DNA of 64,000 bases. Source: a bacterium (lineage in GTDB: Bacteria > Zhuqueibacterota > Zhuqueibacteria > Residuimicrobiales > Krinioviventaceae). The notes beneath the pieces are model-generated. The model saw only the letters and a list, made by a program, of their open reading frames with translations. It was not told the origin of the DNA and ran no database searches. Shown here piece after piece: positions 1-52,384 of this stretch. The stretch is from positions 13,777 through 77,776 of the forward strand of contig CAXXFV010000010.1 in NCBI GenBank assembly GCA_963674595.2. The letters run 5' to 3'. Made by a program: the position numbers and the translations under genes. Within the stretch, counting starts at the first letter, position 1. Each line of letters opens with the position of its first letter.

Positions 1-3000
1 CAGGTGATTTGAGTCGTACAAGCGTTGAAATTCACTTTGGATAATAGCCAGTTTTTTTTCCGAGCTCATCTCATCAGTTATCGGTTTTAAATTGCCCAAA
101 TTTTTTAAGATTTGTTTGTTGGCGGCTTTGAGTTCTTCGGGGAAAACAATTTCATAAACAAGCCCATCAACAACAGATTCAAAGTAATTTGATAATGGCT
201 GTTCTTTTGATTTATCCCTGTACTCTCCCTTATAAAAACTTATGTAGTCAACAAGTTTCTCAATTTGTGAGTTAAAAAATTCTATCGGTTCAGGAATTGG
301 TAAATGTTCCAAAAAGGATTTCTTGTATCGATACTTGCCAACCAATTCTCCTCCAGCATAAAAAATTCGGAACAAAACCGTTATAAGTTCAGAGTTCAAC
401 AATGCTGTAAGCCATTTCAAGTTTTCACCGGTAATTAAGAAAGCTGTTGCTTCCGGATAATATCTTTGAGTGTCGTAATAGAATTGGGGTTCGGAAACTA
501 TTTCTGAAAAAACAATTTTCTCCTTCTCTACCTCTTCAAGAAACGCACAGTTTCTTAAATTAGTCCAATGGTCGCCTTTATCTGCTCTAGTTCTAATATT
601 TTTGGGGAAATTTTCTAAATACGAATACAATTCTGGAAATTCATATTGAACATCAATTCGCTTGATACCTCTTTTTTTATCACCATTATGCGTATTGACC
701 AAATAAAGATTGTGATAATTGCAATAATAACGCCTAGTATCCCTTCCTCTTAGTATTGGTTTTATAATAGTTCTAATTTTTTGATTTAATAATACAAGTT
801 CCTTTTTCTTATCTTCATTTATAATAAAAGCGTCATTGTAACCTGTTAAAATGCCTCTGTAAAAGCTTAAGTTCCATTTTTTAAGCTTGACACCCACTTT
901 TTCTAATTTCAACTTAATTTCAATCATTTCAGGACATGATATTGCCCATACTTCTTCATTAAAATAATCTAAATCAATAGAATTATCTCTAAAATATTTA
1001 ACCATTGAATTTAGTTTGGACTTGGAAAGTTGACATCCTCTGAATTCATTTTTAAAATTATCTCTTTGAAACAAAAGAATGCTGGAGTGAACAATAGCTG
1101 ATGAAAAAACCATTTCTTGGCCAAAATCAAAAAGTAGCTTAGGATTAGTTTTAGCTAAGAAGTACTTACGTGTTGAAGTCCCGTAATTTGCTCTAAGCCA
1201 TTTATTTGATGTAATGTAACATAAGTGTCCTCCTTTAGCTAATATTTTATTTCCAGTCTCATAAAACAATTCATAAATATCTCCGGATGAAGAAAATGTT
1301 TCAAAATTAATTTTAGATAAATTTTTCTTCAATTTTTCATCAAGCTTTGAAATTTGAATATATGGCGGATTTCCAATCACGATATCAAAACCTTCCCTTC
1401 GAGTCCGCTCAGGGTGGGCCTTCTGCGAAAAGACCTCCGCAAAGTAAACATTCCACAAAAAGAAATCTTTTGGCTTTCTGCCTTCGGTGTAGGCAGTTAA
1501 ATCTTTTTCAATTTGTTCAATATCAAAGCCAAGTTTTTTAGTAAGATTTTGTTTCTCTTCGGCAATATATTTTTCGCGTTGTTCTTCTTTTGGAAATTGT
1601 TTGGCCTTTTCTTCAATATTTTTTACCTGCTGAATATTGTCACTTATTTTTTCTTCAAATATTTTAATAATTGCTTTATCAATTTTATCTCGCAGTACTT
1701 TTTTAGTTTCGTTATCCGGCTCGTTTTGGTATTGGTGTTTCAACTCTTCAAATTCTTGAATCAATTTTTTGTGCTCTTCACTAACAGCACTATCTTTATT
1801 ATTTTGTATTTTTTTTAATTCGTTCTCTAATTTATTTATTGTTTTAGACAGTTTCTCTAACTCTTTTTTTAATTTTTGATCTTGTCTGTTTTCTGCATTT
1901 AATATTTTTATAAATTCAGATTGAACTTCTTTTTGTTTAATTTTTATATCATTTAGTTGTTCTTTTATTTCTTCTCTTTGAGACTTTATAGCCTCATTCT
2001 CATTCTTTTTATCATTAAAATCAATTCCGGCATAAGTAGAAATTAAGCTGTTGCCCTGCATCAGTTTAAAATCGAGATTGGGAAGCGGTTCAATTCCATA
2101 ATTGCTATCCGGCTTATCCCAGTCAATTTTTTCATCCACAAGTAGCGAAATAAAGAAACGGAGTTTTGCAATTTCAACTGCAATCTGCTGAATATCTACG
2201 CCGTAAATACATTTTTCAATTAAGTATAGTTTTCTGCCGTAGTCGGCATTTTTTTCTTTAAACTGCCTCTTAATCTGTTCAACAAGTTTACGCTGCACAA
2301 CAGAATCGCTGACAGATTTTTTAACTCCCTCAATTTGCGATTGCTTCCAGTATTCGTTTTTGAGATCGAGTTTACCCAAAATAAAAACAAGTTTATTCAG
2401 CATAGCCATCGGGAAAGCGCCCGAGCCGACTGCGGGATCAACAACTCTTAAATTGTTTATTAAATCGATTATTTTTTTTGTTGTTCCTTCATCAAACGGA
2501 TTTTCAGAGTTGCCAGCATTTATTAGGGATTCTAAATTTTCATCAATATTAGAACTGGTTTCCAAGTTTGTTTTAAAATATTGTTTCAGACTTTCATTAG
2601 TCATATAATTAACAATTTCGCGGGGAGTATAAAAACTGCCGGTAGCTTTTCGTGCGGTGGTGGAAGTCTCTGGGTTGTAGCTTGCAAGTAGATTTTCAAA
2701 AATAGAACCGAGCAGTTCGGGGTCAAGGGCAACTTCAACATCATCTGGTTCATTTTCATCAATCGTAAAGTTGTAACCGTTAAGTAAATTTATTAAACCT
2801 TCTACTTCATAAGTTTTGTTCTCATTCCCAAAGAAACTGCTGATGTCAACTTTTTCCGTTTCTGAAAAGAAAAGGAAATTTGGAACTTTTGGTTGTTGCT
2901 CTTTTGTTGCAGTAAAACCGTCAATATATTTTCTTTCATTTTTATCTTTGGTTTTATAATCCAAACATTCGAATAACCCACCGTTTAGAAATGGAATATT

Positions 3001-3924
3001 TCCAAACAACTTTTCAAGTATTGCCGAATCACTAAATAAATTTTGATAACGAAATACATTATGGTTACCATAATCCGGGTTGTAGCCTTTTGCTCCTCTA
3101 TCTTCGCTTCGGAATTTTCTCTCTTTTTGCTCTGTGTTCAGTGTTGCAAAAAAGAGATTTTGCAACACTGCTTTATAATATGTCGATTCTTCTTTTGAAA
3201 AATCTTTTAGCATTTTACTGATATTTTTTTCATCAAAAAGATCGGTTGGAATAAGATTACGTACTTTCATAAACCAGATAAACATAAGCCTGGTGATAAG
3301 CCTTATAATTGCAACTTCTCGGCCATTGGTTTCTTGTTCGGCATCTCTGGGAAATTCCACATTTTTAATAGCCCAAAAATACCAGCGCTGAAGTTTCTCG
3401 TAGAATTGTTTAGTAATTGGCTCAACACTAAAAGCCTCTTGTATACTATCTAAGCTATTAAAATCACATTTGGAAATTTGGTTAATGAAAGTTTTGTTTG
3501 TCTGCTTTGAGCTTACAAAATAGGTGTATCTTTTAAAATCTGTAAAATCTCTTTTTGCACCAAGAAAATTAACCCGAATTAAACTAAATCGGAAGTTTCC
3601 TCCATCATCATAAAATATAAAAAAGGCAGCGTCTTTATTTTCTTTTTTAAGAATTTTCTTTGCAATTTCATACTGTCCTTTTTTCCCGGTTTTCCCGGTT
3701 AGCGGCGTTAAAGTTTTTGCAGTAAAAACAAGAATGTCGTCTGTATTAGTTAAATCAGCTTCACCAATTTTTACAATGTCTTTGTAATTATCAGTTATAT
3801 ACTCATTTTCATCAAACAGATATTCATAATTTTCCACATCCAGTTTGAAAGTCTTAATTTCTTCTCGGAAAAAATATTTTAGATTGGTTACAGAAAAATT
3901 TTCAATTAAGGTACTTATTGTCAT
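1..3924 (-). CDS. Type IIG (Eco57I/TaqI-like) fused restriction-modification enzyme, N6-adenine MTase; 3' end runs off window
   Basis: Manual translation from ATG at 3924 (MTISTLIENF...). Motif X RKATGSFYTPREIV, motif I VVDPAVGSGAF (~2410-2445) and motif IV GFDIVIGNPPY (~1360-1392) are all in the same frame, which is still open at position 1. Absent from the ORF track, presumably because it has no stop in the window. Confidence 0.9.
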   Translation of the reverse strand, partial: MTISTLIENFSVTNLKYFFREEIKTFKLDVENYEYLFDENEYITDNYKDIVKIGEADLTNTDDILVFTAKTLTPLTGKTGKKGQYEIAKKILKKENKDAAFFIFYDDGGNFRFSLIRVNFLGAKRDFTDFKRYTYFVSSKQTNKTFINQISKCDFNSLDSIQEAFSVEPITKQFYEKLQRWYFWAIKNVEFPRDAEQETNGREVAIIRLITRLMFIWFMKVRNLIPTDLFDEKNISKMLKDFSKEESTYYKAVLQNLFFATLNTEQKERKFRSEDRGAKGYNPDYGNHNVFRYQNLFSDSAILEKLFGNIPFLNGGLFECLDYKTKDKNERKYIDGFTATKEQQPKVPNFLFFSETEKVDISSFFGNENKTYEVEGLINLLNGYNFTIDENEPDDVEVALDPELLGSIFENLLASYNPETSTTARKATGSFYTPREIVNYMTNESLKQYFKTNLETSSNIDENLESLINAGNSENPFDEGTTKKIIDLINNLRVVDPAVGSGAFPMAMLNKLVFILGKLDLKNEYWKQSQIEGVKKSVSDSVVQRKLVEQIKRQFKEKNADYGRKLYLIEKCIYGVDIQQIAVEIAKLRFFISLLVDEKIDWDKPDSNYGIEPLPNLDFKLMQGNSLISTYAGIDFNDKKNENEAIKSQREEIKEQLNDIKIKQKEVQSEFIKILNAENRQDQKLKKELEKLSKTINKLENELKKIQNNKDSAVSEEHKKLIQEFEELKHQYQNEPDNETKKVLRDKIDKAIIKIFEEKISDNIQQVKNIEEKAKQFPKEEQREKYIAEEKQNLTKKLGFDIEQIEKDLTAYTEGRKPKDFFLWNVYFAEVFSQKAHPERTRREGFDIVIGNPPYIQISKLDEKLKKNLSKINFETFSSSGDIYELFYETGNKILAKGGHLCYITSNKWLRANYGTSTRKYFLAKTNPKLLFDFGQEMVFSSAIVHSSILLFQRDNFKNEFRGCQLSKSKLNSMVKYFRDNSIDLDYFNEEVWAISCPEMIEIKLKLEKVGVKLKKWNLSFYRGILTGYNDAFIINEDKKKELVLLNQKIRTIIKPILRGRDTRRYYCNYHNLYLVNTHNGDKKRGIKRIDVQYEFPELYSYLENFPKNIRTRADKGDHWTNLRNCAFLEEVEKEKIVFSEIVSEPQFYYDTQRYYPEATAFLITGENLKWLTALLNSELITVLFRIFYAGGELVGKYRYKKSFLEHLPIPEPIEFFNSQIEKLVDYISFYKGEYRDKSKEQPLSNYFESVVDGLVYEIVFPEELKAANKQILKNLGNLKPITDEMSSEKKLAIIQSEFQRLYDSNHL
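1395..1414. repeat. REP-like palindromic unit embedded in-frame in the R-M gene
   Basis: GC-rich CCCTTCGAGTCCGCTCAGGG in AT-rich context, read as AHPERTRRE just before GFDIVIGNPPY. It resembles the widespread CCCTTCGAC...GCTCAGGG repeat family. Confidence 0.5.
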
Positions 3925-3991
3925 GAGTAATTTCCAAATATGTTAGTTTTAATACAATTTTTGATATTACGTTTTTTTCTTTTAATATTGT

Positions 3992-4124
3992 GCATAACGG
4001 TTCGGCTATGGCAAGTCGCGATTTACAGAGCACGTTCTTGTCGGCCGAGACAAGAACGCCTACGAGAACCGGAACGCCCAAAACCCAACTTCACCCGCCA
4101 TTGGCTATAGCTTTGTTACCAGCC
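3992..4124 (-). other. attC-like integron recombination site
   Basis: Minus strand: GGCTGGTAAC starts 4 nt after the stop of 4129-4767; arms GCTATAGCCAA / TTGCCATAGC; internal hairpin CGTTCTTGTC..GACAAGAACG; ends in GTTATGC (3992-3998). Confidence 0.8.
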
Positions 4125-4128
4125 GTAT

Positions 4129-4767
4129 TTATTCTTTATTTGAATCTGACTTCCATTTTTCAAGTGATTTAATAAACCTTTTTGTCAATAGATCATTTGA
4201 GTCAGAAAGTGCTTTAATTATATCGTCAAATGAAATTATTGATTTTTTATTTTCCTTATTCAATGGTTGTATGTAAATTATTGTTGGCTCAGTCTCTATG
4301 TCTAGATTCTTAATAATTTCTTTGTCCCTTTCAATCCAACCAATTTTTTCAATCTTGTCAAGTAAGTTATTGTATTTAACTTTATGATTTGTTGCGCTAT
4401 AAATTTTCAGTAGTCCGCTTACAAGTCCTTTTACTTTAATTTTTGAAGCACTTTCTAAATACCAGTCTTGTTTTTCTCTACGTGACCTTTGGTCCGTTTT
4501 AAGTTCAATTAAATATACTTTGTTCTCGTTTTTTGAATAAGTCAGATAGTCAATTTTGAATGACTTATTCAATTCAGGATGTGTTGCAGAAATTTCTCCA
4601 ACCCTTACCGAAAATTCAGGTATTATAAAATCAATTTTTACCTTGATTACTTTTTCAATGATTTTGTCAAGATGAATTGCGAAAAAGATGTCTGCTCTTC
4701 TTTCTAGTTGATACGCTGGTAAATTTCTCCAATCGTCAAGTAAGTCAAAAAGTCTATTTATGGTCAT
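4129..4767 (-). CDS. PD-(D/E)XK-like nuclease, gene cassette
   Basis: E...KIDYL...YLIELKTD motif. Flanked by GTTACCAGCC (4785-4794) upstream and its exact complement GGCTGGTAAC (4115-4124) downstream. Confidence 0.7.
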   Translation of the reverse strand: MTINRLFDLLDDWRNLPAYQLERRADIFFAIHLDKIIEKVIKVKIDFIIPEFSVRVGEISATHPELNKSFKIDYLTYSKNENKVYLIELKTDQRSRREKQDWYLESASKIKVKGLVSGLLKIYSATNHKVKYNNLLDKIEKIGWIERDKEIIKNLDIETEPTIIYIQPLNKENKKSIISFDDIIKALSDSNDLLTKRFIKSLEKWKSDSNKE

Positions 4768-4787
4768 TTTCTCTTTTTTTATATGGC

Positions 4788-5022
4788 TGGTAACGGTTGT
4801 GTATAATCATTGTTCTTATTCCTCCGATTCAGGAGCATAAAGACAATTGTTTATGTCTATTTCTTAAAATTAATTATAGTACCTTTCACTCCCACCACTA
4901 AAAAATCCTCAAATTTTCAAATAAGTATTTTTTATTGTAATGGATAATTTTAAAAAAGTCAAGTGTCGATTAAAAAATTTTTAAAACATTGATTTATTCA
5001 ATAAATAATACAACGGTTATTT
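4788..5022 (-). other. Long, degenerate attC-like site
   Basis: AAATAAC overlaps the stop of 5022-5855; CGTTGTATTATTTATTG is imperfectly complementary to CAATGATTATACACAACC; ends in GTTACCA. Confidence 0.5.
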
Positions 5023-5855
5023 TATTTATGCTTTTCAAGTTCACTAATTATTTCTGAACAATCAATTTTGCTCTTCTCCATTTTCTTTACAATTTCCCAC
5101 GCTTCGTCATATTTTTTTTGTTCTAAATAAACAAGTGCAAGATTATAATTAGCTTCTTTCGAATCTTTATTTCTTAGTAAAGCAATTTTAAACTTTTCTT
5201 CAGCTTCATCGAATTTTTTTTGTTCATATAATTCTACACCTTTATTAAGCAAGTCATTAACACGAACAAGCGGATCAAAACCATATTTATTTAAACCGTT
5301 TGTACCTTTTTTAAAAAGTAATAAAAGTTGCAAATAGAAATTATAAATAGGTATAAAAAGTAACCAAAATTGTCTCCCTGGTCGTTCAATATCATGGAGT
5401 CGTTTAATTACAGTAATTGATTGTAGAAACAACATTATAATAAAACTAGTTATATAAATAGGTAATAATATAATATTATCCAAGTCTCCTATTAACCACA
5501 TAGATATAAAAATTACAATGAACAATGCAATCCCAATAATTGCGTTCAACATATAATATTCTGACCGGCTAATTCGGCCGTTAAACAATGATTTCTTTTT
5601 ATTATTTAGTATATCATCAAGGCTATAGGGAATTTGTACGTTCTCATCTACTTCATTATTTGAGAGTTCAGTAACTGTTTCATTTTTTTCCTTTTTCTGT
5701 ATATCTTCTTCAAAGAATTTACCATTACATTTTTTTGTAAACACTTTTGGATTACTTGGAATGTTTTCATGAATTTCACTGCAAACACCAAGTGTTGAGT
5801 TATAGTTGATACATAGAGGACAAAAATCACTAAAAGATTTCATTTCTTCACTCAT
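5022..5855 (-). CDS. DUF805-type inner-membrane protein with N-terminal Cys motif and C-terminal TPR
   Basis: FNGRISRSEY...IKRLHDIERPG...GTNGLNKYG is the DUF805 pattern; EANYNLALVYLEQKKYDEA is TPR-like; RBS AGGAGAGG. Confidence 0.8.
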   Translation of the reverse strand: MSEEMKSFSDFCPLCINYNSTLGVCSEIHENIPSNPKVFTKKCNGKFFEEDIQKKEKNETVTELSNNEVDENVQIPYSLDDILNNKKKSLFNGRISRSEYYMLNAIIGIALFIVIFISMWLIGDLDNIILLPIYITSFIIMLFLQSITVIKRLHDIERPGRQFWLLFIPIYNFYLQLLLLFKKGTNGLNKYGFDPLVRVNDLLNKGVELYEQKKFDEAEEKFKIALLRNKDSKEANYNLALVYLEQKKYDEAWEIVKKMEKSKIDCSEIISELEKHK

Positions 5856-6041
5856 TTTACCTCTCCTATTCGATGTTAATTATCGTTGACATAGTTTATC
5901 TTCCATATTACCGCGCATTCCTTTGTCCATATATAGAAAAAACGGCTGCATTTATAACCTTGCTTGTTTTCCTATATCTGGGCATTTTTTAATTCCCTTC
6001 CAAATCAGATAAACAAATCCGAATTTACGATAAACCAGTGC

Positions 6042-6272
6042 ACCCAACCCAAAAATTTTGACTGTGAAATAACAGGAATGTGATTTTGTGAGCAACTCAA
6101 TCTCTTCCTCGTGTGTTTTTTTTTGAATTCCATTTATATGTGTAGAAAATCAGCTAAAGGGCATCAGGAGTTCCCATGCTCGACCAAATCATCCTAAAAA
6201 ACAGTCCTTTATGACTAATAAAATTATTATACAAATTTTGTTGACCCCGTGCAAGTGGTTTCTAAAGAATTT
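6042..6272 (-). promoter_or_regulatory. Array leader copy 1: sigma70 promoter, uORF, candidate attI-like GTT site
   Basis: TTGCAC(6254-6249)-17bp-TATAAT(6231-6226); uORF MIWSSMGTPDAL* 6192-6154; GTTATTT 6073-6067; GTTGGGT 6048-6042. Homologous to 38139-38370. Confidence 0.7.
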
Positions 6273-6350
6273 CACAATTTTTTCTCGCACGAAATGTGCT
6301 GTTTATAGTTATGAAGCTAAAAATTATAGATAAAAAAACTCAGTTTCCTC

Positions 6351-6470
6351 TTGCGTTTTTTCCGTTTTTAGCATATAATTAATAAACATATCTATCGGAG
6401 GGAATTCAATGTTGAAAGCATTTTAGAAAAGGCGTTTTTACTGCAAGTCAGGTGAATGCCTTTTTGCGTT
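6351..6470 (+). promoter_or_regulatory. sigma70 promoter with possible attenuator leader for the Roc-COR gene
   Basis: TTGCGT(6351)-17bp-TATAAT(6374-6379); GGAGG then mini-ORF MLKAF* (6409-6426); hairpin AAAAGGCGTT...AATGCCTTTTT. Confidence 0.5.
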
Positions 6471-6564
6471 TTGGGTGGGATAAATTTATAAATAATTGCA
6501 TTAATAAGGTAATTAGGTCGAAAAATAATAGGTAGATTGCCACTTTAGAAAAAGGTAAAATGTA

Positions 6565-9207
6565 ATGAAAGATGAAGAGTTTAAGAAAAAATTAAATGAA
6601 GAAACAAGAAAACTTTCTAAAATGCAAACGACGGATTTCGCATGGCGTTGTGCTGTGCGTGCTTTGCCATTTCTCGCGATTAATGGTAATTTCAACTTTT
6701 GGGATGAACAAAATAGAAAAAATCATATCTATAGTATATTCTATGCATTAGATATAAGTGTCTCCAGTGTCGCCGCCAACACCGCCTATGACGCTGCTAA
6801 CGCCGCTAACGCCGCCGCCCACGACGTCGTCCATTTTGTCGACTACAATGCCGCCAACGACGCCACCTACGTCGTCGCCTACGCCGTCGCCAACGCCGCC
6901 AACGTCGCCGCCAACACCGCCAACACCGCCGACTTCGCCGCCGCCAACGCCGCCTACGCCGCCGCCAATGCCGCCAACCACACCACCAACGCCGCCAACA
7001 TCGCCGACTTGGTCATCGGCAAAGCCTCTGACTACGCCCCAAAAAGAATAAAAATAGAATCAATAATTTTACAGGATTTGAAATACTTGCAGGGTGGAAA
7101 AGAACAATTCACATCAATAGAATGGTATGGCGTTATATGGTATAATTTTCAAAAAGCTCTTGAAGCCGAAGGATGTGCATATTGGGGTAAATTATATAAA
7201 AATATTTTCGACAATCAATTTATAATGGACAAAGAAGCCCTTAAAAGGCGTCTGAGCGTCCCTAAAGAAATACAAGCACAGGGCGCTGCAGCGGTCGCTA
7301 GTTATTTAGAAGAAATCGAAAAAAAAGGTGCCGAACAACTTAACGAGGCCCGTATTATCATACTCGGAGATAAAGGGTCCGGTAAGACCTGCATAGCGCG
7401 AAGATTAGTTAATCCTAATGCTCCAATGACGAAAGAAAATGAAAGTACACCTGGTGTTGAAACTACTTTCTGGAAATTGGAAAAAGATAATATAAATGTA
7501 CGTATCTGGGATTTTGCCGGGCATGTTGTTACTCACGCTGTTCATCAATTTTTTCTTTCAGAACGCTGTTTATATATTATTGTTTACAACGGGCGTACCG
7601 ACAATCAAAACCAGAATGGAAATGAATTGCAATATTGGTTAGATCACATGAAAAACTATGGCGGAGATTCTAAAGCAATAATTCTTGTTAATAAACGAGA
7701 CCAACATCGTGTTGAAATTCCAATTAATTTTCTCAAGGAACAATATCCTATCATAAATCATTATACATTTTCTATTAAAAAAGATAAAAAGGAATTAGAA
7801 ACTTTTCGAACAGATGTTGCTCAATATATAAAAAACAATCTTTCCTGGGAAAATCAAATAATACCGAAAAGCTATTTTGAAGTCAAAGAGAGATTAGAAG
7901 AACTTTTTAAAGGTATAAACAGAGAATCAACAGATTTTATTACCAAAGAAAAATTCATAAAGATAGCAGAAAATATTGATAAAAGTAAACAAGATGAATT
8001 ATTAAAAGACCTGCATTTTCTGGGCGTTGGATTATGGTATGAAAACATGGAGGATTATAATACTCTGGTACTTAATCCGGAATGGATCAGTCACGGTGTT
8101 TATAAAATCATCAATTGGGTACATAATGAAAAACAACATTCTCTGGGTTTGGCTGATTTTGAACAGGTCTTTAAGAATGAAGCCAACCGCTATCCCAAAG
8201 ACAAACATGAATTTCTATACAAGTTGATGATACACTATGAACTTGCCTATGAAACAGACGGCAAAGACTGTTTAATCATTCCCCATTTGTTAAAAGAAGA
8301 CCGTCCTGAAAATCTGCCTGATTTCCCTGTTGGTGAAAGTTTAATGTTACGCTATAAAGCGGACCAACCTTTGCCCCCGAATACCATTTCCCGTTTTATT
8401 GTTCGTCATAATCATGAGATCAAAAAAGAAAAATCCTGCTATTGTGTTTGGCGATATGGAGTTGTACTAGAAGATAGTAAAGGAACAACTGCATTAGTAC
8501 GGGAAGAAGATCGAACTATTAACGTTTCCGTAAAAGGTAAGAACAAGACAAACTATATCAGCACATTAAGAGATACTTTGAATGACATTTTTAAAAGTTA
8601 TAAGAGTAAAATACCTGACCTTCAATATCGCATAGTACGTTTTGGGGAAATTCCGAAAGAAATAGAGAAAGAGAATCCTTTATGGTTATCAGAAAAAAAC
8701 ATTTTTTATCATTTTCTCAGAAGAACCCCTTTTTATGATGCCGTAACAGGACAATATATTGATCTAAAATCCATAATTGATAAATTAGAAATCAACATTA
8801 AAAATTTGACTTTAGGGAGTGGCGATATTATAGATAATTCAATACATAATACTTTTAATTTTCAAAATTGCAATATCAACTTACAGAGTAATTTAAATGA
8901 ATTAGCCCGATTATTTAAAAAAACGGGTAATTTGGAAGAAGCGGAAGAACTCGAATATACTGCAGAAGTATTAGATGAGGCTAAACAACTTCAAAAAGAT
9001 GAAATCAAGAAAAAAGGTGTTTTTAATAACGTGAGACGCTTTTTAGAAGATTTAGGCGACGATAAATCCAAACTGCATAAAACAGTTAAAGGACTAAAGC
9101 GAGGAATTAGTATTGCCCAAGATATAGCAAAAACATATAACGATATTGCACAATGGGCTGGGTTACCTCAAGTACCAAAACCATTTTTAAAGAAGGAAGA
9201 TAAATAA
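6565..9207 (+). CDS. Roc-COR GTPase protein lacking LRRs, with Ala/Asn-rich N-terminal repeat
   Basis: G1 GDKGSGKT, G3 WDFAGH, G4 NKRD; COR-like LKDLHFLGVGLWY...LVLNPEWISHGVY and IIPHLL motifs. Confidence 0.85.
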   Translation: MKDEEFKKKLNEETRKLSKMQTTDFAWRCAVRALPFLAINGNFNFWDEQNRKNHIYSIFYALDISVSSVAANTAYDAANAANAAAHDVVHFVDYNAANDATYVVAYAVANAANVAANTANTADFAAANAAYAAANAANHTTNAANIADLVIGKASDYAPKRIKIESIILQDLKYLQGGKEQFTSIEWYGVIWYNFQKALEAEGCAYWGKLYKNIFDNQFIMDKEALKRRLSVPKEIQAQGAAAVASYLEEIEKKGAEQLNEARIIILGDKGSGKTCIARRLVNPNAPMTKENESTPGVETTFWKLEKDNINVRIWDFAGHVVTHAVHQFFLSERCLYIIVYNGRTDNQNQNGNELQYWLDHMKNYGGDSKAIILVNKRDQHRVEIPINFLKEQYPIINHYTFSIKKDKKELETFRTDVAQYIKNNLSWENQIIPKSYFEVKERLEELFKGINRESTDFITKEKFIKIAENIDKSKQDELLKDLHFLGVGLWYENMEDYNTLVLNPEWISHGVYKIINWVHNEKQHSLGLADFEQVFKNEANRYPKDKHEFLYKLMIHYELAYETDGKDCLIIPHLLKEDRPENLPDFPVGESLMLRYKADQPLPPNTISRFIVRHNHEIKKEKSCYCVWRYGVVLEDSKGTTALVREEDRTINVSVKGKNKTNYISTLRDTLNDIFKSYKSKIPDLQYRIVRFGEIPKEIEKENPLWLSEKNIFYHFLRRTPFYDAVTGQYIDLKSIIDKLEINIKNLTLGSGDIIDNSIHNTFNFQNCNINLQSNLNELARLFKKTGNLEEAEELEYTAEVLDEAKQLQKDEIKKKGVFNNVRRFLEDLGDDKSKLHKTVKGLKRGISIAQDIAKTYNDIAQWAGLPQVPKPFLKKEDK
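6767..7020 (+). repeat. Degenerate (GCC/NNC)n trinucleotide tract within the Roc-COR gene
   Basis: ~85 codons almost all ending in C/T (GCC, AAC, TAC, GAC, GTC, ACC); a GC-rich island in an AT-rich gene. Confidence 0.85.
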
Positions 9208-10725: not shown

Positions 10726-11901
10726 TTAATACATTCTCCCGGAGGTCATAATCCGGTTATTAGAGCCTGAAGTCGCCGCAGCAACAAAAATCCCATTACC
10801 ATAAGCAACGGCCCGCCAGGCGTTATCGGCGGCACTGGCGCGGGACGTCCATGTGATACCATCCGTGGAAGTCATAACGCGGTCACCCGTGCCGCTATTG
10901 GCAACGGCAACGAACAGCCCGTTTCCATAGGTAACGGCCCGCCAGGCATTATCGGAAGCACTGGCGCGATATGTCCAGTAAAGACCCTCCGGGGACGTCA
11001 TAACACGGTCACCGGTGCCGGAAGCGGCAACAGCAACAAACATCCCATTACCATAGGTAACAGCGTACCACTGGTTATCAGAAGCACCCATGCGGGAGGT
11101 CCAGGTAATACCGTCCGTAGAAGTCATAACACAGTAAACAGTACCATTGGAAGCAACGGCAACAAACCGCCCGTTACCATAGGCAACAGAACTCCAGTAC
11201 TCATTATCGGCAGCACTGGCGCGGGACGTCCAGGTAATACCATCCGGCGATGTCATAATTTGGTGGCCTGTACCGGTAGTACTCGCAACAGCAACAAACA
11301 ACCCATTACCGTAGGTAACAGAATTCCAGGAAATATCTGCGGCGCTGGTACGGGACGTCCAAGTAATGCCATCGGGGGACGTCATAACACGGTTACCGGT
11401 ACCACTAGCCGCAACAGCAACAAACAGCCCGTTCCCGTAAGCCACAGAGGTCCAGGAATTATCGGCAGCGCTGGTGCGGGACGTCCAGTAAACACCATCC
11501 GTAGATGTCATGACGCGGTTACCAATCCCGGAAGCAGAAACAGCAACAAATATTCCGTTGCCATAGGCTACAGACCGCCAGGTATTATTCTCCGGGTTAT
11601 TACGTGATTCCCATATAATACCCCGGTCAATGAGATAGCCGGTGAGTTCTAAATTTCCTTGCGGGTCTAAATAAAACGTTTGTGCGCCGGTCGAGTTGTA
11701 GACCATAATGGCCCAAACACCATCCATATTTTTTAATACGATCGAACTTGTATCATAGTCTGCGATAGTCGAATGACTTTTTTCATAATTAGAATCAAAC
11801 CACACCTGACCGTATATTCCCCGGTTATGGGTATAGGTAATCTGGCAAAAAGCCGAAACGCTCATCATGACCAAAATCAACAACATTAACCATTTTTTCA
11901 T
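10726..11901 (-). CDS. Beta-propeller repeat protein with signal peptide (tail/receptor-binding module position)
   Basis: ~7 repeats of WTSRxSAADNxWxSVAYGNGxFVAVAxSGTGxRVMTSxDG (Asp-box-like); N-terminus MKKWLMLLILVMMSVSAFC/Q. Confidence 0.8.
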   Translation of the reverse strand: MKKWLMLLILVMMSVSAFCQITYTHNRGIYGQVWFDSNYEKSHSTIADYDTSSIVLKNMDGVWAIMVYNSTGAQTFYLDPQGNLELTGYLIDRGIIWESRNNPENNTWRSVAYGNGIFVAVSASGIGNRVMTSTDGVYWTSRTSAADNSWTSVAYGNGLFVAVAASGTGNRVMTSPDGITWTSRTSAADISWNSVTYGNGLFVAVASTTGTGHQIMTSPDGITWTSRASAADNEYWSSVAYGNGRFVAVASNGTVYCVMTSTDGITWTSRMGASDNQWYAVTYGNGMFVAVAASGTGDRVMTSPEGLYWTYRASASDNAWRAVTYGNGLFVAVANSGTGDRVMTSTDGITWTSRASAADNAWRAVAYGNGIFVAAATSGSNNRIMTSGRMY

Positions 11902-30454: not shown

Positions 30455-31858
30455 CTATAAACCCCTCGTATCTATATCAGCATAAGAAACAGATACTTTT
30501 TCACCCAACAGGAAATCGATGGATTGTTTGGCCAGATGTCGCTTTTTCCGGTTGACGAAATTTTGAGCTACCCGTTTAATAGAGGCATCTTTATTGATCT
30601 TGGATACAAATCCCAAACCAGCCACATATTCAACAGCTTCCTGTTCTTCCATCAGTTCATGGTCCAGTAGCCATTCCAGGGCCTTTAATTCCTTTTCCAA
30701 TGCAGAAGCATTTAAGTGTCTGGCTCGTGCCATTTCGGTCTCATCAAACAGTCCCACCGGGTTCCATTCATGGTACCATTTTGCACCGGTATACCCCTCA
30801 AACATTAAAAAGGTGTTGGTGACTTTTTCTATGACAGAATCAACAGAATCCCGTCTCTCTTCAATACTGGAAATCAAAAGGTCTTTCTGGTCTTCACTCA
30901 TTTTGAAATTAGAGTTCCAGTTGTACAATCCGAAACTAAAAGGAGGTAATTCTGTCCGGGCGATGATCTGCTCTATAATGATCCTGGAAGGGATTTCCAT
31001 ATCCATTAATTGAGCACCTTCACCCAAAACTTTAACACTCACTTTGGATTCACTGGGAACAGCTCCGCCAATATCCCGGACCTGACCGCGTTTGCGGTCT
31101 TTGTTCACATCTTCCAATTGGGTCAACAGCTTATCAGCAGAATCTTTCAGGTCAGTATAATTTGTACCTCTCCCTCCTTCAATCAGTAATACAAAAGTCG
31201 GATCACCGATCCTGACAACAGCGTTCTTGATGGATTGCTGTATTCTTAACAGTATCTCGGCAACAAAAGGCATGGAATTAAACAGACTCACACCCTGAGG
31301 ATGGCCGTCTCTTAAATCAAATGTCAAATACTGAACAAATTCCGGGTGTTCTAATATAACAGGTTTTGCAGCATCATGAGGTAAGGAAGCCAGCCATAGT
31401 CTACCGTCTTTCCGGATAAAACGAACCTTGGAAGCATCACCGACTTTTAACCGGTCCACACCATTCAAACCGGCAAAAGGAACGGTCTCAAAGACACCAT
31501 AACCATTGGCCAGAGCAGAATCATAGACTTGTTGTAAACACCCATGTAATCCCTTGTGAAAATATCCGACCCTGATCTCTTTTTTGAAGTTGTTCAAGGC
31601 TTTTAAGACATTCGGATTATCGCAACGGTATTCAAAATCACCGATCAGTCTCCGGAGCTTTAATACAGCTACATCTAAAATCGGGATGGCTTCACGAAGA
31701 ATATTATAAATCTTTAGATTGTACCTTAACGGCTCATATCCGTTTAAATATGTCTGAAATGGGCTGTCACTTGCAGAATAAAGCTGGGATTTAACAATAA
31801 CGTTGTTGGATTGTTTCGGTGGGAAATATTTATTAAGATTGAATTTTGGAAGGTTCAT
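30455..31858 (-). CDS. Portal protein
   Basis: 467 aa; LREAIPILDVAVLKLRRLIG, HPQGVSLF, LPPFSFGL; synteny. Confidence 0.85.
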   Translation of the reverse strand: MNLPKFNLNKYFPPKQSNNVIVKSQLYSASDSPFQTYLNGYEPLRYNLKIYNILREAIPILDVAVLKLRRLIGDFEYRCDNPNVLKALNNFKKEIRVGYFHKGLHGCLQQVYDSALANGYGVFETVPFAGLNGVDRLKVGDASKVRFIRKDGRLWLASLPHDAAKPVILEHPEFVQYLTFDLRDGHPQGVSLFNSMPFVAEILLRIQQSIKNAVVRIGDPTFVLLIEGGRGTNYTDLKDSADKLLTQLEDVNKDRKRGQVRDIGGAVPSESKVSVKVLGEGAQLMDMEIPSRIIIEQIIARTELPPFSFGLYNWNSNFKMSEDQKDLLISSIEERRDSVDSVIEKVTNTFLMFEGYTGAKWYHEWNPVGLFDETEMARARHLNASALEKELKALEWLLDHELMEEQEAVEYVAGLGFVSKINKDASIKRVAQNFVNRKKRHLAKQSIDFLLGEKVSVSYADIDTRGL

Positions 31859-31990: not shown

Positions 31991-32116
31991 TAAAAAAACG
32001 GACCCATGAGAGACAATGCACTATGGAAGGTAGGTTCGGGATACTCCCTAGTCTTCGGTTAGTACAATGCAGTCATGTAGTCCGTTAATTCATAATCCCT
32101 CTCTGGTGATTAAGTT
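31991..32116 (-). ncRNA. Candidate structured small RNA / attenuator
   Basis: Starts after promoter 32151-32123; closing stem AACGGAC..CATGA / TCATG..GTCCGTT followed by a T-run. Confidence 0.4.
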
Positions 32117-32122
32117 AATTAA

Positions 32123-32169
32123 ATAATACAAACTTTATTAAACCCGTGCAAGCAGATTTTAAAGAATTT
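32123..32169 (-). promoter_or_regulatory. sigma70 promoter, third copy of the array promoter motif
   Basis: AAATTCTTTA..TTGCAC-17bp-TATTAT, sharing the upstream AAATTCTTTA and pre -10 TTTG with the promoters at 6226-6272 and 38324-38370. Confidence 0.7.
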
Positions 32170-32262
32170 ATCAAAGTATATTCGATTCAGACTATTATAA
32201 ATGTATCACCTTTATAAAAATTCTTAATATCCTGGTATGTGAATTGTTTATACAACAAAATA

Positions 32263-32718
32263 TTAAGTTATCATTAATGATTTATCATCAATAATTAATT
32301 TACCATTTTTACATGCTGGACAATTAAATTTTTCAATGTATCCCGGATAATAAATCATTTCATTCTTGCAGGTTGGACATTTGATAGCAGAGAAACTAAA
32401 ACATTCAGTAGGTAATTTTGTCTTTTCAGGATTATCTTTTTTATAATCTTTGTAATTTTCTCGATATTCTTTTTTAATATTTTCCAAATTCATTTCCCAT
32501 GGATTATAATTCGCTTCAATAAACTCGACAATTATCAACTTTTTGTATTCAACACAATGCGGACAATAAGCATTTATATACAATCCATCTGCTTTCTGAT
32601 TACCAACCGGATGTGGTAAAGCTATCATATTACCAAATTGGAATTTGAATTCATGGGGACCAGAGACGGAAATTTTAAAATTGCAGTCGACACAGATGAA
32701 GCTTATGTAAGTTGCCAT
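32263..32718 (-). CDS. Zn-ribbon (4x CxxC) accessory protein
   Basis: CVDC, CPHC, CPTC, CPAC; AT-rich; GTTATAA upstream at 32821-32827. Confidence 0.7.
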   Translation of the reverse strand: MATYISFICVDCNFKISVSGPHEFKFQFGNMIALPHPVGNQKADGLYINAYCPHCVEYKKLIIVEFIEANYNPWEMNLENIKKEYRENYKDYKKDNPEKTKLPTECFSFSAIKCPTCKNEMIYYPGYIEKFNCPACKNGKLIIDDKSLMIT

Positions 32719-33117
32719 ATTTTATCCTATCTTTTCAAATGTTTTCATTGACAGTATAAAAAGGTTAATTGAAAGGAGGATAAATAAATACCCAAATATA
32801 AATAAAAAAATCTTCTCAATTTATAACGAGGTGCATAATGCTTTTCACCAAATAGACACAATGCCATTCCAGTTAACTTGAATGTTTTCTTAAACCAATT
32901 CCAACAATTAGGAGTATTGCACCTAATAAAATTTTTAACACGTTAATTAGTACTTCCATTACTTTATAATTCCAAATCTAAATAATTTTATTTACTATAC
33001 AAATTCTGCAATATTGATTAAGGTCAAAAGTAGTGTAAAAATCTAAAGTCTTAAAACACAATAAGGTTTTACGAATATGAATTAACATGCATGAAATGGT
33101 ATTTTGCTTCATTAACT

Positions 33118-33381
33118 TTAATCATTGTTTTCTTCATCTTCATCCAGTACATGCCTTCTAAAAATGCTAACAGAATCTTGAGAATCTATATTGGGATCAT
33201 TAACTAATTTATCAATTTCTGAATCAGAAGCTTTTAAACCTACCTTGAAAGAAATAGTAGACCAAATTAATAATAAAACACATATTGTCTTTGCAACAAT
33301 ATTGTCAAATATTAATAAAATTTAAGTAGCAATTAAAACTTTAATTATTCCTACAGCTATTGGCACATATCTTGGTTTCAT
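33118..33381 (-). pseudogene. Small membrane-protein pseudogene
   Basis: MKPRYVPIAVGIIKVLIAT*ILLIFDNIVAKTICVLLLIWSTISFKVGLKASDSEIDKLV...; in-frame TAA at 33324-33322; RBS AAGGA. Confidence 0.55.
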
Positions 33382-33521
33382 TTTATATACAATCCTTTGG
33401 TTAAAGATAAATTATCTTGAGAAATCAAGTTTTATTGATTCCTATATTATTTTACATAAAGCCATATAATAACAAGCTATTTCATCAAATGATTCGAATA
33501 ATAATAATTTCATAAAATATA

Positions 33522-33962
33522 TTACGTGGAGAATTGTGTTGCAATTTCAGAAGAATAGCTAGCTATCTTAGTCCAGTAAACAATCCAGCAGATTAATCCA
33601 ATTATAAATATAACAGTACCAATTGTTGGGATAATACTGCACAAACCTAAAACACACCACGCTATGCCAAGTGATTTTCCTGGATTTGGTTCTTTTATAA
33701 TGTTTCTACGCTTAAATTCGTTATCTAAGGAAGTAGCAATTCTTGAGACAACTATAAACTGCCAGATAAGATTGAAAAACGGAATCAACATTAACCATAC
33801 CTGGCTTGGATTCATAGCTCGACTCAATGGATCACATCTCTCGAGGCATTTCTGCAAAGTTAGTAGAAAAAAAATTAATGGTATTAAACTAATTAGTAGA
33901 AAAAATATAATAATTAATTCAGGTCCACTTGGGGACATCATTGCGAAGATAGATGCTATCAT
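33522..33962 (-). CDS. Membrane protein (DUF4328-like)
   Basis: MNPSQVWLMLIPFFNLIWQF motif, 4 TM segments, RBS AAGGAG. Confidence 0.7.
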   Translation of the reverse strand: MIASIFAMMSPSGPELIIIFFLLISLIPLIFFLLTLQKCLERCDPLSRAMNPSQVWLMLIPFFNLIWQFIVVSRIATSLDNEFKRRNIIKEPNPGKSLGIAWCVLGLCSIIPTIGTVIFIIGLICWIVYWTKIASYSSEIATQFST

Positions 33963-34068
33963 TTATATTCTCCTTTTTTTGAAAATTATAATTGCCAATT
34001 AATTTCATTTCCAGCGAATTTCTATATTTTTTGATTTAGTAAATCACTTTGCTAAGCGGTCAAAAAAA

Positions 34069-34221
34069 ACATAACGTTTCATTGCTTTTTCCTTATTGAT
34101 CATACAAAGGTGCAGTAGAACCGCACCGTACAACTTGAGAAGTAAGCAAAATTAGATGCTGACATTAAAATTTCTTGATTTCATCGTCCGCCCTGCGGTC
34201 AGCTGCATTAAAAGTTAGCAC
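34069..34221 (-). other. attC-like site (3' arm degenerate)
   Basis: GTGCTAAC-ttttaATGCAGCTGACCGC... to GTTATGT. GTGCTAAC is complementary to GTTAGCAC (35162-35169) upstream of the same gene. Confidence 0.7.
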
Positions 34222-34267
34222 AATATACTATAGTTAATGTTTTATTATTATATTAAAAAACTATATA

Positions 34268-35152
34268 TTAAACAGGATCTTGCTTTTCCCAATACTTGCA
34301 GGATTGAGGAAACAAAGACCGCTTAATAATTTGAGTTGAAAATTGTTTTTCCCAAACGGCTTTAGTTTTTTTATGAATTTTGCAAGGGATATATTCAATA
34401 AAAAGCATGACTGGGTACATCCATAATTCACTTTCATACTTTTCAATTTTACGATAATGTTTGCAAGTCTTACACCACATTAACTTGTCTAAATCCGTTT
34501 GATGTGCAAGGCCGGGATTATAGTCAGCTCCAATAATATTACCAAGCTTTTGCATCGATTTAATATACTCTTTTGCATCATTAAATTTTTGATTTATCTC
34601 GATTGAACTGTAAGTCTCTTCAGTGTTTACTCTACTAACACTATTCTCATTTTTTATTTTCAACAAAAAATAAGCGGCTAATATCAATCCAATTACAATG
34701 AATATGCTTAATATTGCTGCTCTAAAATTATATTTGCTTGCCGAATTATTTATTTGATTTAATTCATTCTTTGCTTCTTTTAATAGTTTTCGATGATTTG
34801 CTAAGCTTTGCGAGTACAAATTCAAAACATCTTTTTCAGCTTGTTTTTCAGCTTCGCAAATTTCAAAAGCTAATTTTCTTGATGAGTCCGGTGAAATTCC
34901 TTGCTTCGAAAATTCAAAAGTCATTTCCTTTATTTTTCTATTATAATCTTTTGTTGCTATCTTCATATTAAAATCGTCTATAGATTTTTCGAAATAATTA
35001 ATATTTTTACTCAATGCTTCAACTCTTTCAGACCAATATTTTTTGGGATTAATTGATTTTTTTATAAAATCATCAGGGACAAATAAATTATACACAATAA
35101 TTAATATTATTGAACTTATAATTATATGTTTTAACGATATTTTTATTTTCAT
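34268..35152 (-). CDS. Two-TM coiled-coil protein with C-terminal Cys cluster, gene cassette
   Basis: TM-coiled coil-TM-WCKTCKHY..PC..C; starts 9 nt after GTTAGCAC. Confidence 0.7.
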   Translation of the reverse strand: MKIKISLKHIIISSIILIIVYNLFVPDDFIKKSINPKKYWSERVEALSKNINYFEKSIDDFNMKIATKDYNRKIKEMTFEFSKQGISPDSSRKLAFEICEAEKQAEKDVLNLYSQSLANHRKLLKEAKNELNQINNSASKYNFRAAILSIFIVIGLILAAYFLLKIKNENSVSRVNTEETYSSIEINQKFNDAKEYIKSMQKLGNIIGADYNPGLAHQTDLDKLMWCKTCKHYRKIEKYESELWMYPVMLFIEYIPCKIHKKTKAVWEKQFSTQIIKRSLFPQSCKYWEKQDPV

Positions 35153-35318
35153 ATTAATTCCGTGCTAACATAGTTTTAATATATTCAGACAGTCATATTT
35201 ACAGTGAAAACATTTAGTTTCATGGTGTAGTTTTACTGCATTTTTTAATTGTATTTTTATTTAGATTTAAGAATGGGGCGGTAGAACTGGCACCCTATTT
35301 CTGAGCAAAAAATATTAT

Positions 35319-35924
35319 TCATTTCAATGAACTTCTTGATGAAATTACCTCAATACGTTTATAATATTCTTCTTCTGTCTTTAATGATAGCAACAGAAAT
35401 ACAAAGAAACCTAAAAAATTAATAGCAAAAACAATAACAACCTGATAACAACATTTGTTAAATATCAAATAAATCAAATTAATTAAAAACATTAAAAAAT
35501 TTGCACCGCTTAAATTCCATCGCATATGATTTAAAATATTATAGCGTTCAATATACTCGTAATATGCATTCGTATTTTCATTAAATATAGCAACTTCTTT
35601 ATTTAAAATATCTTCTATTTTATTATCAATTGAATATTTCAGTATTTTTTTAATTTTGCTTTCAACTTTTGTTTTTTCAAAAACAACATACATTAATGCG
35701 TATGTCAAATGACCAAATGTATATGAAAATAGTAAAAGTATAATAAAAAGATATGGAAATTCTTTCCAATAATTAAATATAGATTGTTCATAGTAAAAAT
35801 AATCGATGAAAAATAACTCAAACAGGATAAGGGAGCCGCTTAAAATATAAACTTGTATTTCACGAGCTATATGTTTGAATGCCTTTATTAGTTGTTCCGT
35901 GATATTTGTCATTGCTTCTTCCAA
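35319..35924 (-). CDS. Four-TM accessory membrane protein
   Basis: Hydrophobic segments; AT-rich; GTTGGGT upstream (35953-35959). Confidence 0.7.
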   Translation of the reverse strand: MEEAMTNITEQLIKAFKHIAREIQVYILSGSLILFELFFIDYFYYEQSIFNYWKEFPYLFIILLLFSYTFGHLTYALMYVVFEKTKVESKIKKILKYSIDNKIEDILNKEVAIFNENTNAYYEYIERYNILNHMRWNLSGANFLMFLINLIYLIFNKCCYQVVIVFAINFLGFFVFLLLSLKTEEEYYKRIEVISSRSSLK

Positions 35925-36015
35925 TTCACTCTAGGTTGATTTATATTTTTGAACCCAACATTGTCACCAGGGTTTTGTTAAATGGTGGTTTATAAACACA
36001 TATCAAGCCTACTAT

Positions 36016-36294
36016 TTACCTACTTTTATCTTTTAAAATTACGACCAATCCAATTGTAATAAGGCATATTGAAATAAGTTGAGCATAAAAAGTTGGAGTA
36101 TGCAAAAAAACAATATTTGTAACTCCACTTGCTGTGCTTTTAACTTTGAAGATAGCAAATGGTTTGTACCCCATAGGTACATTTTTATCACCATAATCTA
36201 CATAACATGGTGGCACCAAAAATGAGAGTATAATCAGTAGTATGCCCATGAGAATTACTATCTTCTGTTTGGAATTCAAATTCATATGTTTCAC
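36016..36294 (-). CDS. Small two-TM protein
   Basis: LNSKQKIVI...LVPP...; followed by collapsed attC-like ATTTAAC-17bp-GTTGGGT. Confidence 0.65.
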   Translation of the reverse strand: MKHMNLNSKQKIVILMGILLIILSFLVPPCYVDYGDKNVPMGYKPFAIFKVKSTASGVTNIVFLHTPTFYAQLISICLITIGLVVILKDKSR

Positions 36295-36414
36295 CTTTTT
36301 AAATACCTGCTTACATAGTTCATTATATTTATATATCCGTATTTACTGTGGCGAGATATTGTCATTTGTTCCAAAAGTAAATCGCTTCCACCTCAATTAT
36401 ATCTTATTGAAGTG

Positions 36415-36538
36415 GTCTAACATTTGGCATAATCGGTCGCTAACAAACCGATATTTTATTTGTATTTTGTTTTTTACCAACTTTTAAACTGCTCAAAATG
36501 GACCGCTGAAGCGGTCCGCGTTCAGCCCGTTGTTAGCC
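36415..36538 (-). other. attC integron recombination site
   Basis: GGCTAAC-aacgggCTGAACGCGGACCGC...GCGACCGATTATGCC-aaat-GTTAGAC, starting 4 nt after the stop of 36543-37505; near-canonical RYYYAAC/GTTRRRY architecture, 124 bp. Confidence 0.85.
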
Positions 36539-36542
36539 ACTA

Positions 36543-37505: not shown

Positions 37506-37700
37506 TCAACTTCTCCTATTATAACAATGTTAATTAATTATATGAACCAATTGCCCCTATAATGCTAATTACCAGACATACAGAATTGGTATTGAATTAT
37601 CATAACAGCTAAGCCAGAATTTGATCGCTTATGAGCTATGCCATATTTTGCGGTACAACGGCAAGCAAAAATAGCATTAAGAAATAAAACACTTAAATAT

Positions 37701-37925
37701 TTATGAACAAGCTCGAATAATCAATATTACAATAAGTATTGTAAATGCAAATTTTGCGAAACTCCAAATTCCCATTAACAAATTTAGACCTGCTGCCATT
37801 ATTGCACCAACTAATCCATCTTCTTGATATGATTCTAAAACCATCATAATTGCAATAAATATACGCCATAATACTACAATACCAATGTAAACAAGAGCTA
37901 ACCAAAATAATATTTGACCGATCAT
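37701..37925 (-). CDS. Small hydrophobic membrane protein
   Basis: 74 aa, two TM segments, RBS AAGGA. Confidence 0.6.
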   Translation of the reverse strand: MIGQILFWLALVYIGIVVLWRIFIAIMMVLESYQEDGLVGAIMAAGLNLLMGIWSFAKFAFTILIVILIIRACS

Positions 37926-38138
37926 TTTAGATTCCTTTTTAAATCAGTAAATAAGGATAGTTATTGAAATAAATATTAGTGCAATAACACATAGTCAAGC
38001 TACCTTTATCAAGCAGCAAGTATTTTCTAATATTGGAAGATTTTGTTTATATGTGCTTTCCACAGATTTATAAAGAAACAATTTCAAATACATACATTTT
38101 GCTAGGAAAATATCTTGATTAATATTGAACATAAACTG

Positions 38139-38370: not shown

Positions 38371-38396
38371 AATTTTTTTTTCTCTTCAAAAATATA

Positions 38397-38422
38397 AAAG
38401 CCCCGCATCACTACGAGGCTTG
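38397..38422 (-). terminator. Intrinsic terminator after the terminase operon
   Basis: AAGCCTCG-tagtgatg-CGGGGCTTTT on the minus strand. Confidence 0.6.
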
Positions 38423-52359: not shown

Positions 52360-52384
52360 CTTAAAAAATAATCTAGGTAAAATA

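Follow-up and report, generated by a model that had tools for sequence, protein, structure and literature searches.

In a 64,000-nucleotide stretch of contig CAXXFV010000010.1 from a bacterium of the Krinioviventaceae (the window hereafter), two minus-strand sequences, copy A (6042–6272) and copy B (38141–38371), are homologous, and each consists of a predicted promoter followed by a leader. Their resemblance lies far beyond chance, because the same sequence recurs 44 times in the organism's own genome when copy A is used in a BLAST search and 134 times by iterated nhmmer; A and B are two of these 134 copies. We propose, at a probability of roughly 60%, that both are copies of a promoter–leader module that has spread to at least 134 places and that serves as a portable, outward-reading promoter for the genes downstream of it, rather than as an integron attachment site (attI). 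The module would express whatever lies 3' of it, and its leader would be transcribed as the 5' end of the message. The features of the window copies are as follows (HMM, hidden Markov model of the family; ORF, open reading frame).

6042–6272, minus: module copy A (HMM positions 4–232, nhmmer 195 bits), promoter and ~170-nt leader reading into cargo region A
6249–6254, minus: predicted -35 hexamer of copy A, TTGCAC; TTG invariant in 47 aligned copies
6226–6231, minus: predicted -10 hexamer of copy A, TATAAT, made an extended -10 by a TG one base before it; the T, A and last T are invariant in the family
6005–6100, minus: ORF of 31 codons and stop in the leader of copy A, with TTG as its start codon 6 nt past GAGGAAG
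38141–38371, minus: module copy B (HMM 3–230, nhmmer 162 bits), directly 3' of the terminase operon terminator and reading into cargo region B
38347–38352, minus: predicted -35 hexamer of copy B, TTGCGG, read from sequence and alignment
38324–38329, minus: predicted -10 hexamer of copy B, TATCAT, with TG one base upstream
38102–38197, minus: leader ORF of copy B, TTG start, 31 codons and stop
32114–32170, minus: promoter-only third copy (HMM 3–59), preceding the portal gene; similarity to sibling prophages resumes here (32175 or 32115)

Architecture and distribution of the module

Both strands were read, and the functional strand of both copies is the minus strand. Along it, each presents an A-tract, a -35 TTGC, exactly 17 nt and an extended -10 (TGTATAAT in A; TGTATCAT in B), followed by ~170 nt of shared leader that ends TTGGGTTGG and then by 190–215 nt of unique sequence; the first minus-strand genes beyond the modules start at 5855 (A) and 37925 (B). 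Pairwise alignment of A and B extends over ~250 nt at ~70% identity, arranged in the blocks that a preliminary description of this DNA had listed (CCAACCCAA.AATTTTGAC, GAAATAACAGGAAT, TTCCTCGT, CAG.TAAAGG, TCAGGA, TCCCAT, CGACCA, TCCTAAAAAA, ATACAAATTT, GCAAGT and TAAAGAATTT). The same description had placed a promoter with 17-nt spacing in front of each gene array, pointing into it, and this predicted promoter, a TTGC, 17 nt and an extended -10 on the minus strand, is conserved in the 47 full copies that were aligned. A box GTTATTT (6067–6073), for which a complement at the end of a neighbouring gene had been claimed, is part of a conserved block, ATTCCTGTT(A/G)TTTC; as a 7-mer match in DNA of 38% GC, the claimed complement is weak evidence.

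Successive rounds of nhmmer on the host genome (6.6 Mb, 37 contigs) gave 78, 132 and finally 134 matches to a model of 232 positions, and the module spans ~232–245 bp. All but one of the matches (133/134) begin within the first 20 model positions, that is, at the promoter edge. Their 3' ends scatter from position 53 to 232: 30 copies stop before position 100 and hold the promoter only, 32 end at 100–199, and 72 reach position 200 or beyond. Three sets of columns vary hardly or not at all among the 47 aligned copies: TTG in the -35, G in the extended -10 and TA...T in the -10. These are the positions by which a putative promoter of the sigma-70 type is defined. A Bacteroidetes-type promoter (consensus TTTG / TAnnTTTG) was also considered and rejected, since neither the spacing nor the conserved columns fit it when the alignment is inspected by eye.

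Between pairs of the 55 full copies, identity is 61% at the median and 89% at most; the family is therefore old and shows no recent burst. For 14 of the 55, the closest relative lies within 20 kb, where 1.2 would be expected at random, so some of the spread or homogenisation has been local. Some pairs of copies share 90–93% identity across a discrete unit of ~241 nt with unrelated flanks. Such pairs and the high copy number are what would be expected of a self-inserting miniature transposable element (MITE or Correia-like) that brings an outward promoter to sites upstream of genes, and repeats able to supply a promoter, among them Correia, ERIC and REPIN, are known (excerpt of PMC3575422). The module resembles these as a high-copy intergenic repeat and differs from them in lacking terminal inverted repeats, in its strong orientation towards genes and in its variable 3' extent. 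The best inverted match between 5' and 3' ends averages 8.58 nt, against 8.35 nt in shuffles; inverted matches of at least 11 nt occur in 4/55 copies, against 2.6 expected and 4 with mismatched partners, and the 11-nt, A/T-only inverted arms of copy A are not a feature of the family. No target-site duplication was seen by eye in the junction alignments, in which the element ends are fuzzy, and no transposase is tied to the family, for which no systematic search was made. Random insertion would point about half of the copies at a downstream gene, whereas 87% do so; the 5' end is constant and the 3' ends vary, and the median identity speaks against recent bursts. We therefore regard self-insertion of a transposable element as very improbable.

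Module-rich islands occur on contigs C29, C13, C26 and C18, and 27 of the 134 copies are on C29. A dense array there (C29:44540–51171) consists of two back-to-back modules (44766, minus; 44916, plus) followed by four co-oriented modules spaced 1.1–1.9 kb apart, each with one to three small ORFs behind it, including a duplicated pair of 112 and 97 aa.

Searched for in 40 further genomes of its host's family and order, the module gave no more than one match, of 37 nt at E = 8e-5, and a BLAST search of phage and plasmid collections with copy A gave no match. An exact-pattern scan for a 20-base leader motif returned 53 loci in GTDB species genomes, 3 in IMG/VR and 67 in metagenomes, each with a single match except for one metagenome locus with two, and those in GTDB come from unrelated taxa. 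These loci were rejected as module copies: the family HMM matches them only over the pattern itself, and they look like chance. The GTDB, IMG/VR and metagenome collections may omit records of the window's own genome. Across the relatives and the phage, plasmid, GTDB, IMG/VR and metagenome scans, the module was found in this one genome only and appears to be lineage-specific.

Downstream genes and prophage borders

A same-strand ORF of at least 100 aa starts within 500 nt downstream of 117 of the 134 copies (87%), and only 17 face a convergent ORF of that size. The proteins encoded downstream are unrelated to one another: clustering the 126 of at least 60 aa gives 112 clusters, and the biggest has six members. 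Among the 121 of at least 80 aa, 144 Pfam families are represented, led by Por_Secre_tail, the sorting domain of the type IX secretion system (T9SS), in 12; histidine kinases occur in 4, and helicases, a caspase and toxin-like Gp49 are also present. GC content is 36.2% in the downstream ORFs and 38.8% in the genome, a slight excess of AT in the former. The host encodes LpxC and many T9SS sorting domains, and searches of its genome for SusD and for a photosynthetic reaction centre were negative, which points to a Gram-negative bacterium of the FCB group. A and B had been described as a duplicated platform specific to a phage, which does not hold for two of 134 genome-wide copies standing before 112 unrelated protein clusters.

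The window contains a siphovirus-like prophage, recognised by its terminase, portal, major head protein, tape measure, RecT-like protein and phage integrase. Its main landmarks are listed below.

1–6041, minus: cargo region A, with a DUF805–TPR protein (5022–5855), a 212-aa ORF and an Eco57I/MmeI-like type IIG restriction–modification enzyme (1–3924)
30455–31858, minus: portal protein, backbone gene downstream of cargo region B
32176–38140, minus: cargo region B, six ORFs of 74, 320, 201, 294, 146 and 151 aa, without counterpart at this place in sibling prophages
38398–38421, minus: terminator-like hairpin of 10 pairs followed by a T-run, closing the terminase operon 27 nt upstream of copy B
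38669–40396, minus: terminase large subunit (GpA_ATPase), backbone gene upstream of copy B, 85–91% identical to sibling prophages
52280–53431, plus: phage integrase, an ordinary tyrosine recombinase and the only one in the window, marking the right prophage end

Comparing module flanks all against all, and the window with the remainder of the genome, revealed at least five related sibling prophages, and in at least five of the siblings the module sits at the junction between conserved backbone and variable cargo. The prophage on contig C3 follows the window at 91–96% identity from 46000 to 38168, breaks off there and resumes at 32115; those on C9 and C25 lose similarity at 38141 and regain it at 32175, where the promoter-only copy has its edge. 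At the tail end of the window prophage, 9267–13886 matches C22:4611–1 at 92%, with the C22 module 125 nt further on. Both window copies therefore lie at conserved borders of backbone and cargo. In the window, the first genes past the terminase-side module are the 74-aa ORF and a gene for a nucleoside-deoxyribosyltransferase-like protein; among the siblings the first gene at this place is instead that of a hybrid histidine kinase, a TIR protein, an SNF2 helicase or, on C3, the integron integrase IntI. The proposal that one promoter–leader heads both variable gene regions of the prophage is borne out, and the siblings keep the same gene order as far as the module and differ in gene content beyond it.

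In the window prophage, the module would drive two variable cargo regions, one in the interval between terminase and portal and one past the tail genes, and the promoter-only copy (32114–32170) would drive the portal gene. As a sequence shared by sibling prophages and gene islands, the module probably also offers a stretch of homology for cargo swaps, and cargo is probably exchanged between copies by homologous recombination; the phage encodes a RecT-like protein. Lambdoid phages carry morons, extra genes with their own promoter among the backbone genes, and "linker" sequences, short conserved sequences at mosaic boundaries. The module with its extra genes between conserved backbone genes is comparable to these, but here one promoter–leader is reused at several borders of one phage and occurs about 100 times outside recognisable prophage backbone.

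Several further features of the window were noted. Copy B alone carries an antisense promoter-like sequence, CTGACA-17-TATAAT (38313–38341, plus; 11 of 12 positions match the consensus), which points back at the terminase gene. The type IIG enzyme (1–3924, minus) is the final gene of cargo region A and exceeds 1308 aa, running off the window; the region as a whole showed no similarity elsewhere in the organism's own genome. Between the tail end of the prophage and copy A, on the opposite strand, lies a gene for a Roc–COR GTPase (6565–9207, plus; 880 aa) that is without counterpart at the C22 sibling end. Internal repeats of ~73% identity, at offsets in multiples of ~126 nt, occupy 10741–11588 within a 391-aa ORF (10726–11901) and are also present in the C22 sibling; this ORF probably encodes a tail fibre or receptor-binding protein. 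Upstream of the terminase (40792–42623, minus), two ORFs are 91% conserved in the C3 sibling, one formyltransferase-like and the other with ABC-ATPase and GNAT matches. From 53593 onward the genes are host-like (DUF1611, a phosphodiesterase, a YitT membrane protein and a GH38 alpha-mannosidase). The structural region had no megablast match in the phage collection, the portal protein had distant matches only, a terminase search in IMG/VR found no relative, and a tRNA/tmRNA scan found none.

The integron integrase and the attI reading

The gene at the position of copy B in the C3 sibling ties the family to integrons.

Contig C3:115823–116812 (locus L136:9821–10813), minus: integron integrase IntI, 330 aa, intact, in a sibling prophage between terminase and portal

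This protein scores 454 bits against TIGR02249 (cut-off 265), with profile positions 1–315 falling on residues 16–330, and its translation contains what we take to be the extra segment specific to IntI (ALPFALDKKYPNA...RRHH). The module that precedes it provides its start: the Shine–Dalgarno (SD) sequence and TTG codon of the module are those of the 330-aa intI ORF. By tblastn, this is the only intact intI in the genome, and the window's own contig (C10) has no IntI match. A gene for a protein with a T9SS tail follows the C3 intI.

Traces of the gene accompany other modules. A decayed module–intI pair lies at C6:1535–1945, and a 165-nt segment that follows the intI stop codon recurs 64–83 nt past three other modules; at one module, C29:7138, the last ~70 nt of intI are kept beside this segment (score 66). 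Homology to the 3' end of intI is not claimed at C9:142260 and C29:96736, where scores of 36 and 32 barely exceed those of unrelated copies (22–30). The first ~17 codons of the leader ORF in copy A are colinear with the start of the C3 intI, and the last ~55 nt of the module resemble the stub of a protein-coding gene, namely intI, to which the module lies in the sense direction and whose start codon it includes. Relatives of IntI occur in 32 of the 61 genomes searched, a count that includes the organism's own. Among 14 intI loci examined in relatives (L209–L222), none has a module upstream; the IntI N-termini they encode share only KLL(D/E)Q, and the module has its K-L-L codons at that very place. 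The shared SD–TTG on C3, the decayed pair on C6, the post-intI segments and the position of KLL suggest that the module is the putative promoter, 5' untranslated region and first ~17 codons of intI, and that its copies derive from loci from which intI has been deleted.

Integrons share a core site with the consensus GTTRRRY. In class 1 integrons, attI and the cassette promoter (Pc) are divergent from intI, and in integrons of the inverted type attI is expected in the segment after intI. The preliminary description had read A and B as phage-borne integron heads of this general kind without an integrase. In a widened form of that reading, the module would be a Pc with an attI-like site at which an integron integrase inserts cassettes at G|TT of GTTGGGT, and the window prophage would be an integron whose intI was lost. 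The link to integrons that it supposed is real, in that the C3 module would drive an intact intI. A genuine integrase headed by the module occupies exactly the same backbone position in a sibling, fragments of intI and post-intI segments adjoin other modules, the promoter reads into variable, exchangeable genes, and sibling cargo differs from the 3' end of the module onward. GTTGGGT fits GTTRRRY, as do 9 of the 47 full copies, and phage-borne integron parts have been reported (excerpt of PMC9892861).

The attI part of the proposal does not stand. Similarity does end after GGGTTGG in the pair A and B, but this is no fixed breakpoint of the family: near-identical pairs diverge at different nucleotides, some of them 25–35 nt past GGGTTGGGT, divergence of the C3 intI copy sets in ~25 nt before that of the others, and 3' ends are scattered from HMM position 53 to 232. 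GTT, which had been expected as a constant insertion point, stands at the aligned boundary in only 13 of the 47 full copies. Both a shifting breakpoint and a decayed gene within the leader had been named at the outset as outcomes speaking against an integron head, and the intI stub is such a gene. The module runs in the sense direction into intI and contains its start codon, unlike a divergent Pc/attI, and an insertion at that point would destroy intI. A strict scan for RYYYAAC...GTTRRRY combined with folding, itself crude, found no attC candidate in four cargo regions, and a repeat search found no recurring repeat in cargo region B. Only 4 copies keep the post-intI segment, the place where an inverted-type attI would be looked for; this 165-nt segment might itself be an attI candidate. 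In further contrast to an integron head, the module has no conserved crossover core and is scattered across the genome instead of heading one array. The module is not an attI site, because no breakpoint is fixed, GTT is present in 13/47, the crude scan found no attC and the module is sense to intI, and we consider an integron-type platform with site-specific insertion improbable.

A wider version of the promoter reading keeps the integron ancestry. Here the module would be an integron remnant (the promoter, leader and ~17 codons of intI) that was freed by deletion of intI and amplified more than 100-fold, and that now forms a head which expresses genes and marks the place of exchange in prophages and islands. 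Exchange would be cassette-like, run by homology or by IntI at non-canonical sites and without attC, and the head would be spread by temperate phages encoding a RecT-like annealing protein. Taken as a whole, this chain of steps is unlikely.

The leader and known promoter families

Conservation in the leader is highest in ACGAGGAAGAGATTG, which holds a ribosome-binding site (GAGGAAG) and, after it, the TTG start. A six-frame reading of A and B meets stops in all frames across the whole element, and the short TTG ORF is the only one common to both; its consensus begins LRRLQNHIPVVSRSKLLGW. If translated, this ORF could regulate the cargo through a leader peptide, or through ribosomes that stay on the transcript and block premature termination, and it would resemble the short ORF (ORF-11) that lies across attI1 in class 1 integrons. 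Of 68 copies whose match extends to HMM position 215 or beyond, 45 contain the ACGAGGAAGAGATTG anchor. In these the reading frame set by TTG has a median open length of 32 codons, compared with 18 and 17 for the two alternative frames, and it runs to at least 25 codons in 30/45 (alternative frames, 15 and 15); a His codon alternates between CAT and CAC among copies. The anchor is missing, however, from 23 of the 68, 9 of the 45 anchored copies stop before codon 19, and the tail of the peptide and its stop vary, the length ranging from 4 to 151 codons. There is no relaxation at third positions (0.86, 1.02 and 0.94 bits per codon position, against 0.96–1.00 in an upstream control), and in the absence of codon periodicity and with so variable a stop no conserved peptide is claimed. 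The stop lies ~130 nt (median, a rough estimate) before the start of the cargo gene, so translational coupling is unlikely, and coupling of the ORF to the cargo was rejected on these distances. The open frame is also explicable as a leftover of intI. Regulation by translation of the leader ORF thus appears to us a poor prospect.

Conserved blocks that alternate with variable stretches could also reflect a structured cis-regulatory RNA (riboswitch, antiterminator or thermometer) at the head of a regulon. Consensus hairpins are possible (ATCAG/CTGAT, AAAGG/CCTTT, CAGGA/TCCTG and AGGAA/TTCCT), the last of which would sequester the SD and start codon, and a hand-built structure of 27 pairs has 84.1% of its cells paired, compared with 82.4% in shuffles, none of 500 of which reached that value. 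Set against this, Rfam gave no match at the gathering threshold over the whole window and chance-level ones only at E up to 10 over 5900–6560, and RNAalifold predicted 0 pairs on 47 copies. Double-sided changes number 31 in the hand-built structure but 33 and 36 when it is slid by -1 and +1, which lends no support from covariation, and the leaders of A and B gain no stability over dinucleotide shuffles (z = +2.02 and -0.11, respectively). A structured regulatory RNA is accordingly a remote prospect.

Several observations weigh against a portable promoter as the function of the module. Its promoter activity and transcription start are predicted from sequence only. A generic promoter scanner did not call the minus-strand promoters of A and B, because TTGCAC and TTGCGG match TTGACA at 3 of 6 positions only; its calls did include the antisense CTGACA-17-TATAAT of copy B. 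The 30 promoter-only matches could be convergent strong promoters and not homologues. Just 14 of 55 full copies lie within 20 kb of the copy most similar to them. The case for an intI origin consists of three residues (KLL) and four loci. Finally, a leader of ~170 nt is still recognisable at a median identity of 61% despite lacking a supported fold and codon periodicity, and the ~130-nt gap between its ORF and the cargo counts on the same side.

Among known systems, the portable promoter–leader proposed here comes closest to the putative mobile promoters (PMPs) of Matus-Garcia, Nijveen and van Passel (2012), as presented in an excerpt of the commentary PMC3575422. These are delimited by at least 80% identity over at least 50 nt, and most PMP families are pairs with ~92% identity over 50–100 nt. 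As in PMPs, homologous noncoding upstream sequence precedes non-homologous genes within one genome, and it belongs to no known insertion sequence or Rfam family. Many pairs of modules reach this identity (up to 89–96%), but the median of full copies is 61%. Compared with the families described in that excerpt, the module differs in its 134 members, its length of ~232 nt, its long leader with SD and start codon, its lower median identity and its ties to prophage cargo borders and intI. It is most likely a large and old member of this class.

An active promoter in the module would place ~130 transcription units of this genome under one expression signal, as a single regulon of accessory genes. 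This regulon would take in the integron integrase, secreted proteins of the T9SS and the defence-like cargo of the prophages (the type IIG restriction enzyme, the TIR protein and the SNF2 helicase). If the module does descend from the 5' end of intI, as it appears to, this would be an unusual fate for part of an integron. With most such families being pairs in the excerpted account (PMC3575422), an active module would rank among the largest families of propagated promoters described. It would then offer a concrete case of how horizontally acquired genes come to be expressed and of how sibling prophages swap cargo at fixed borders.

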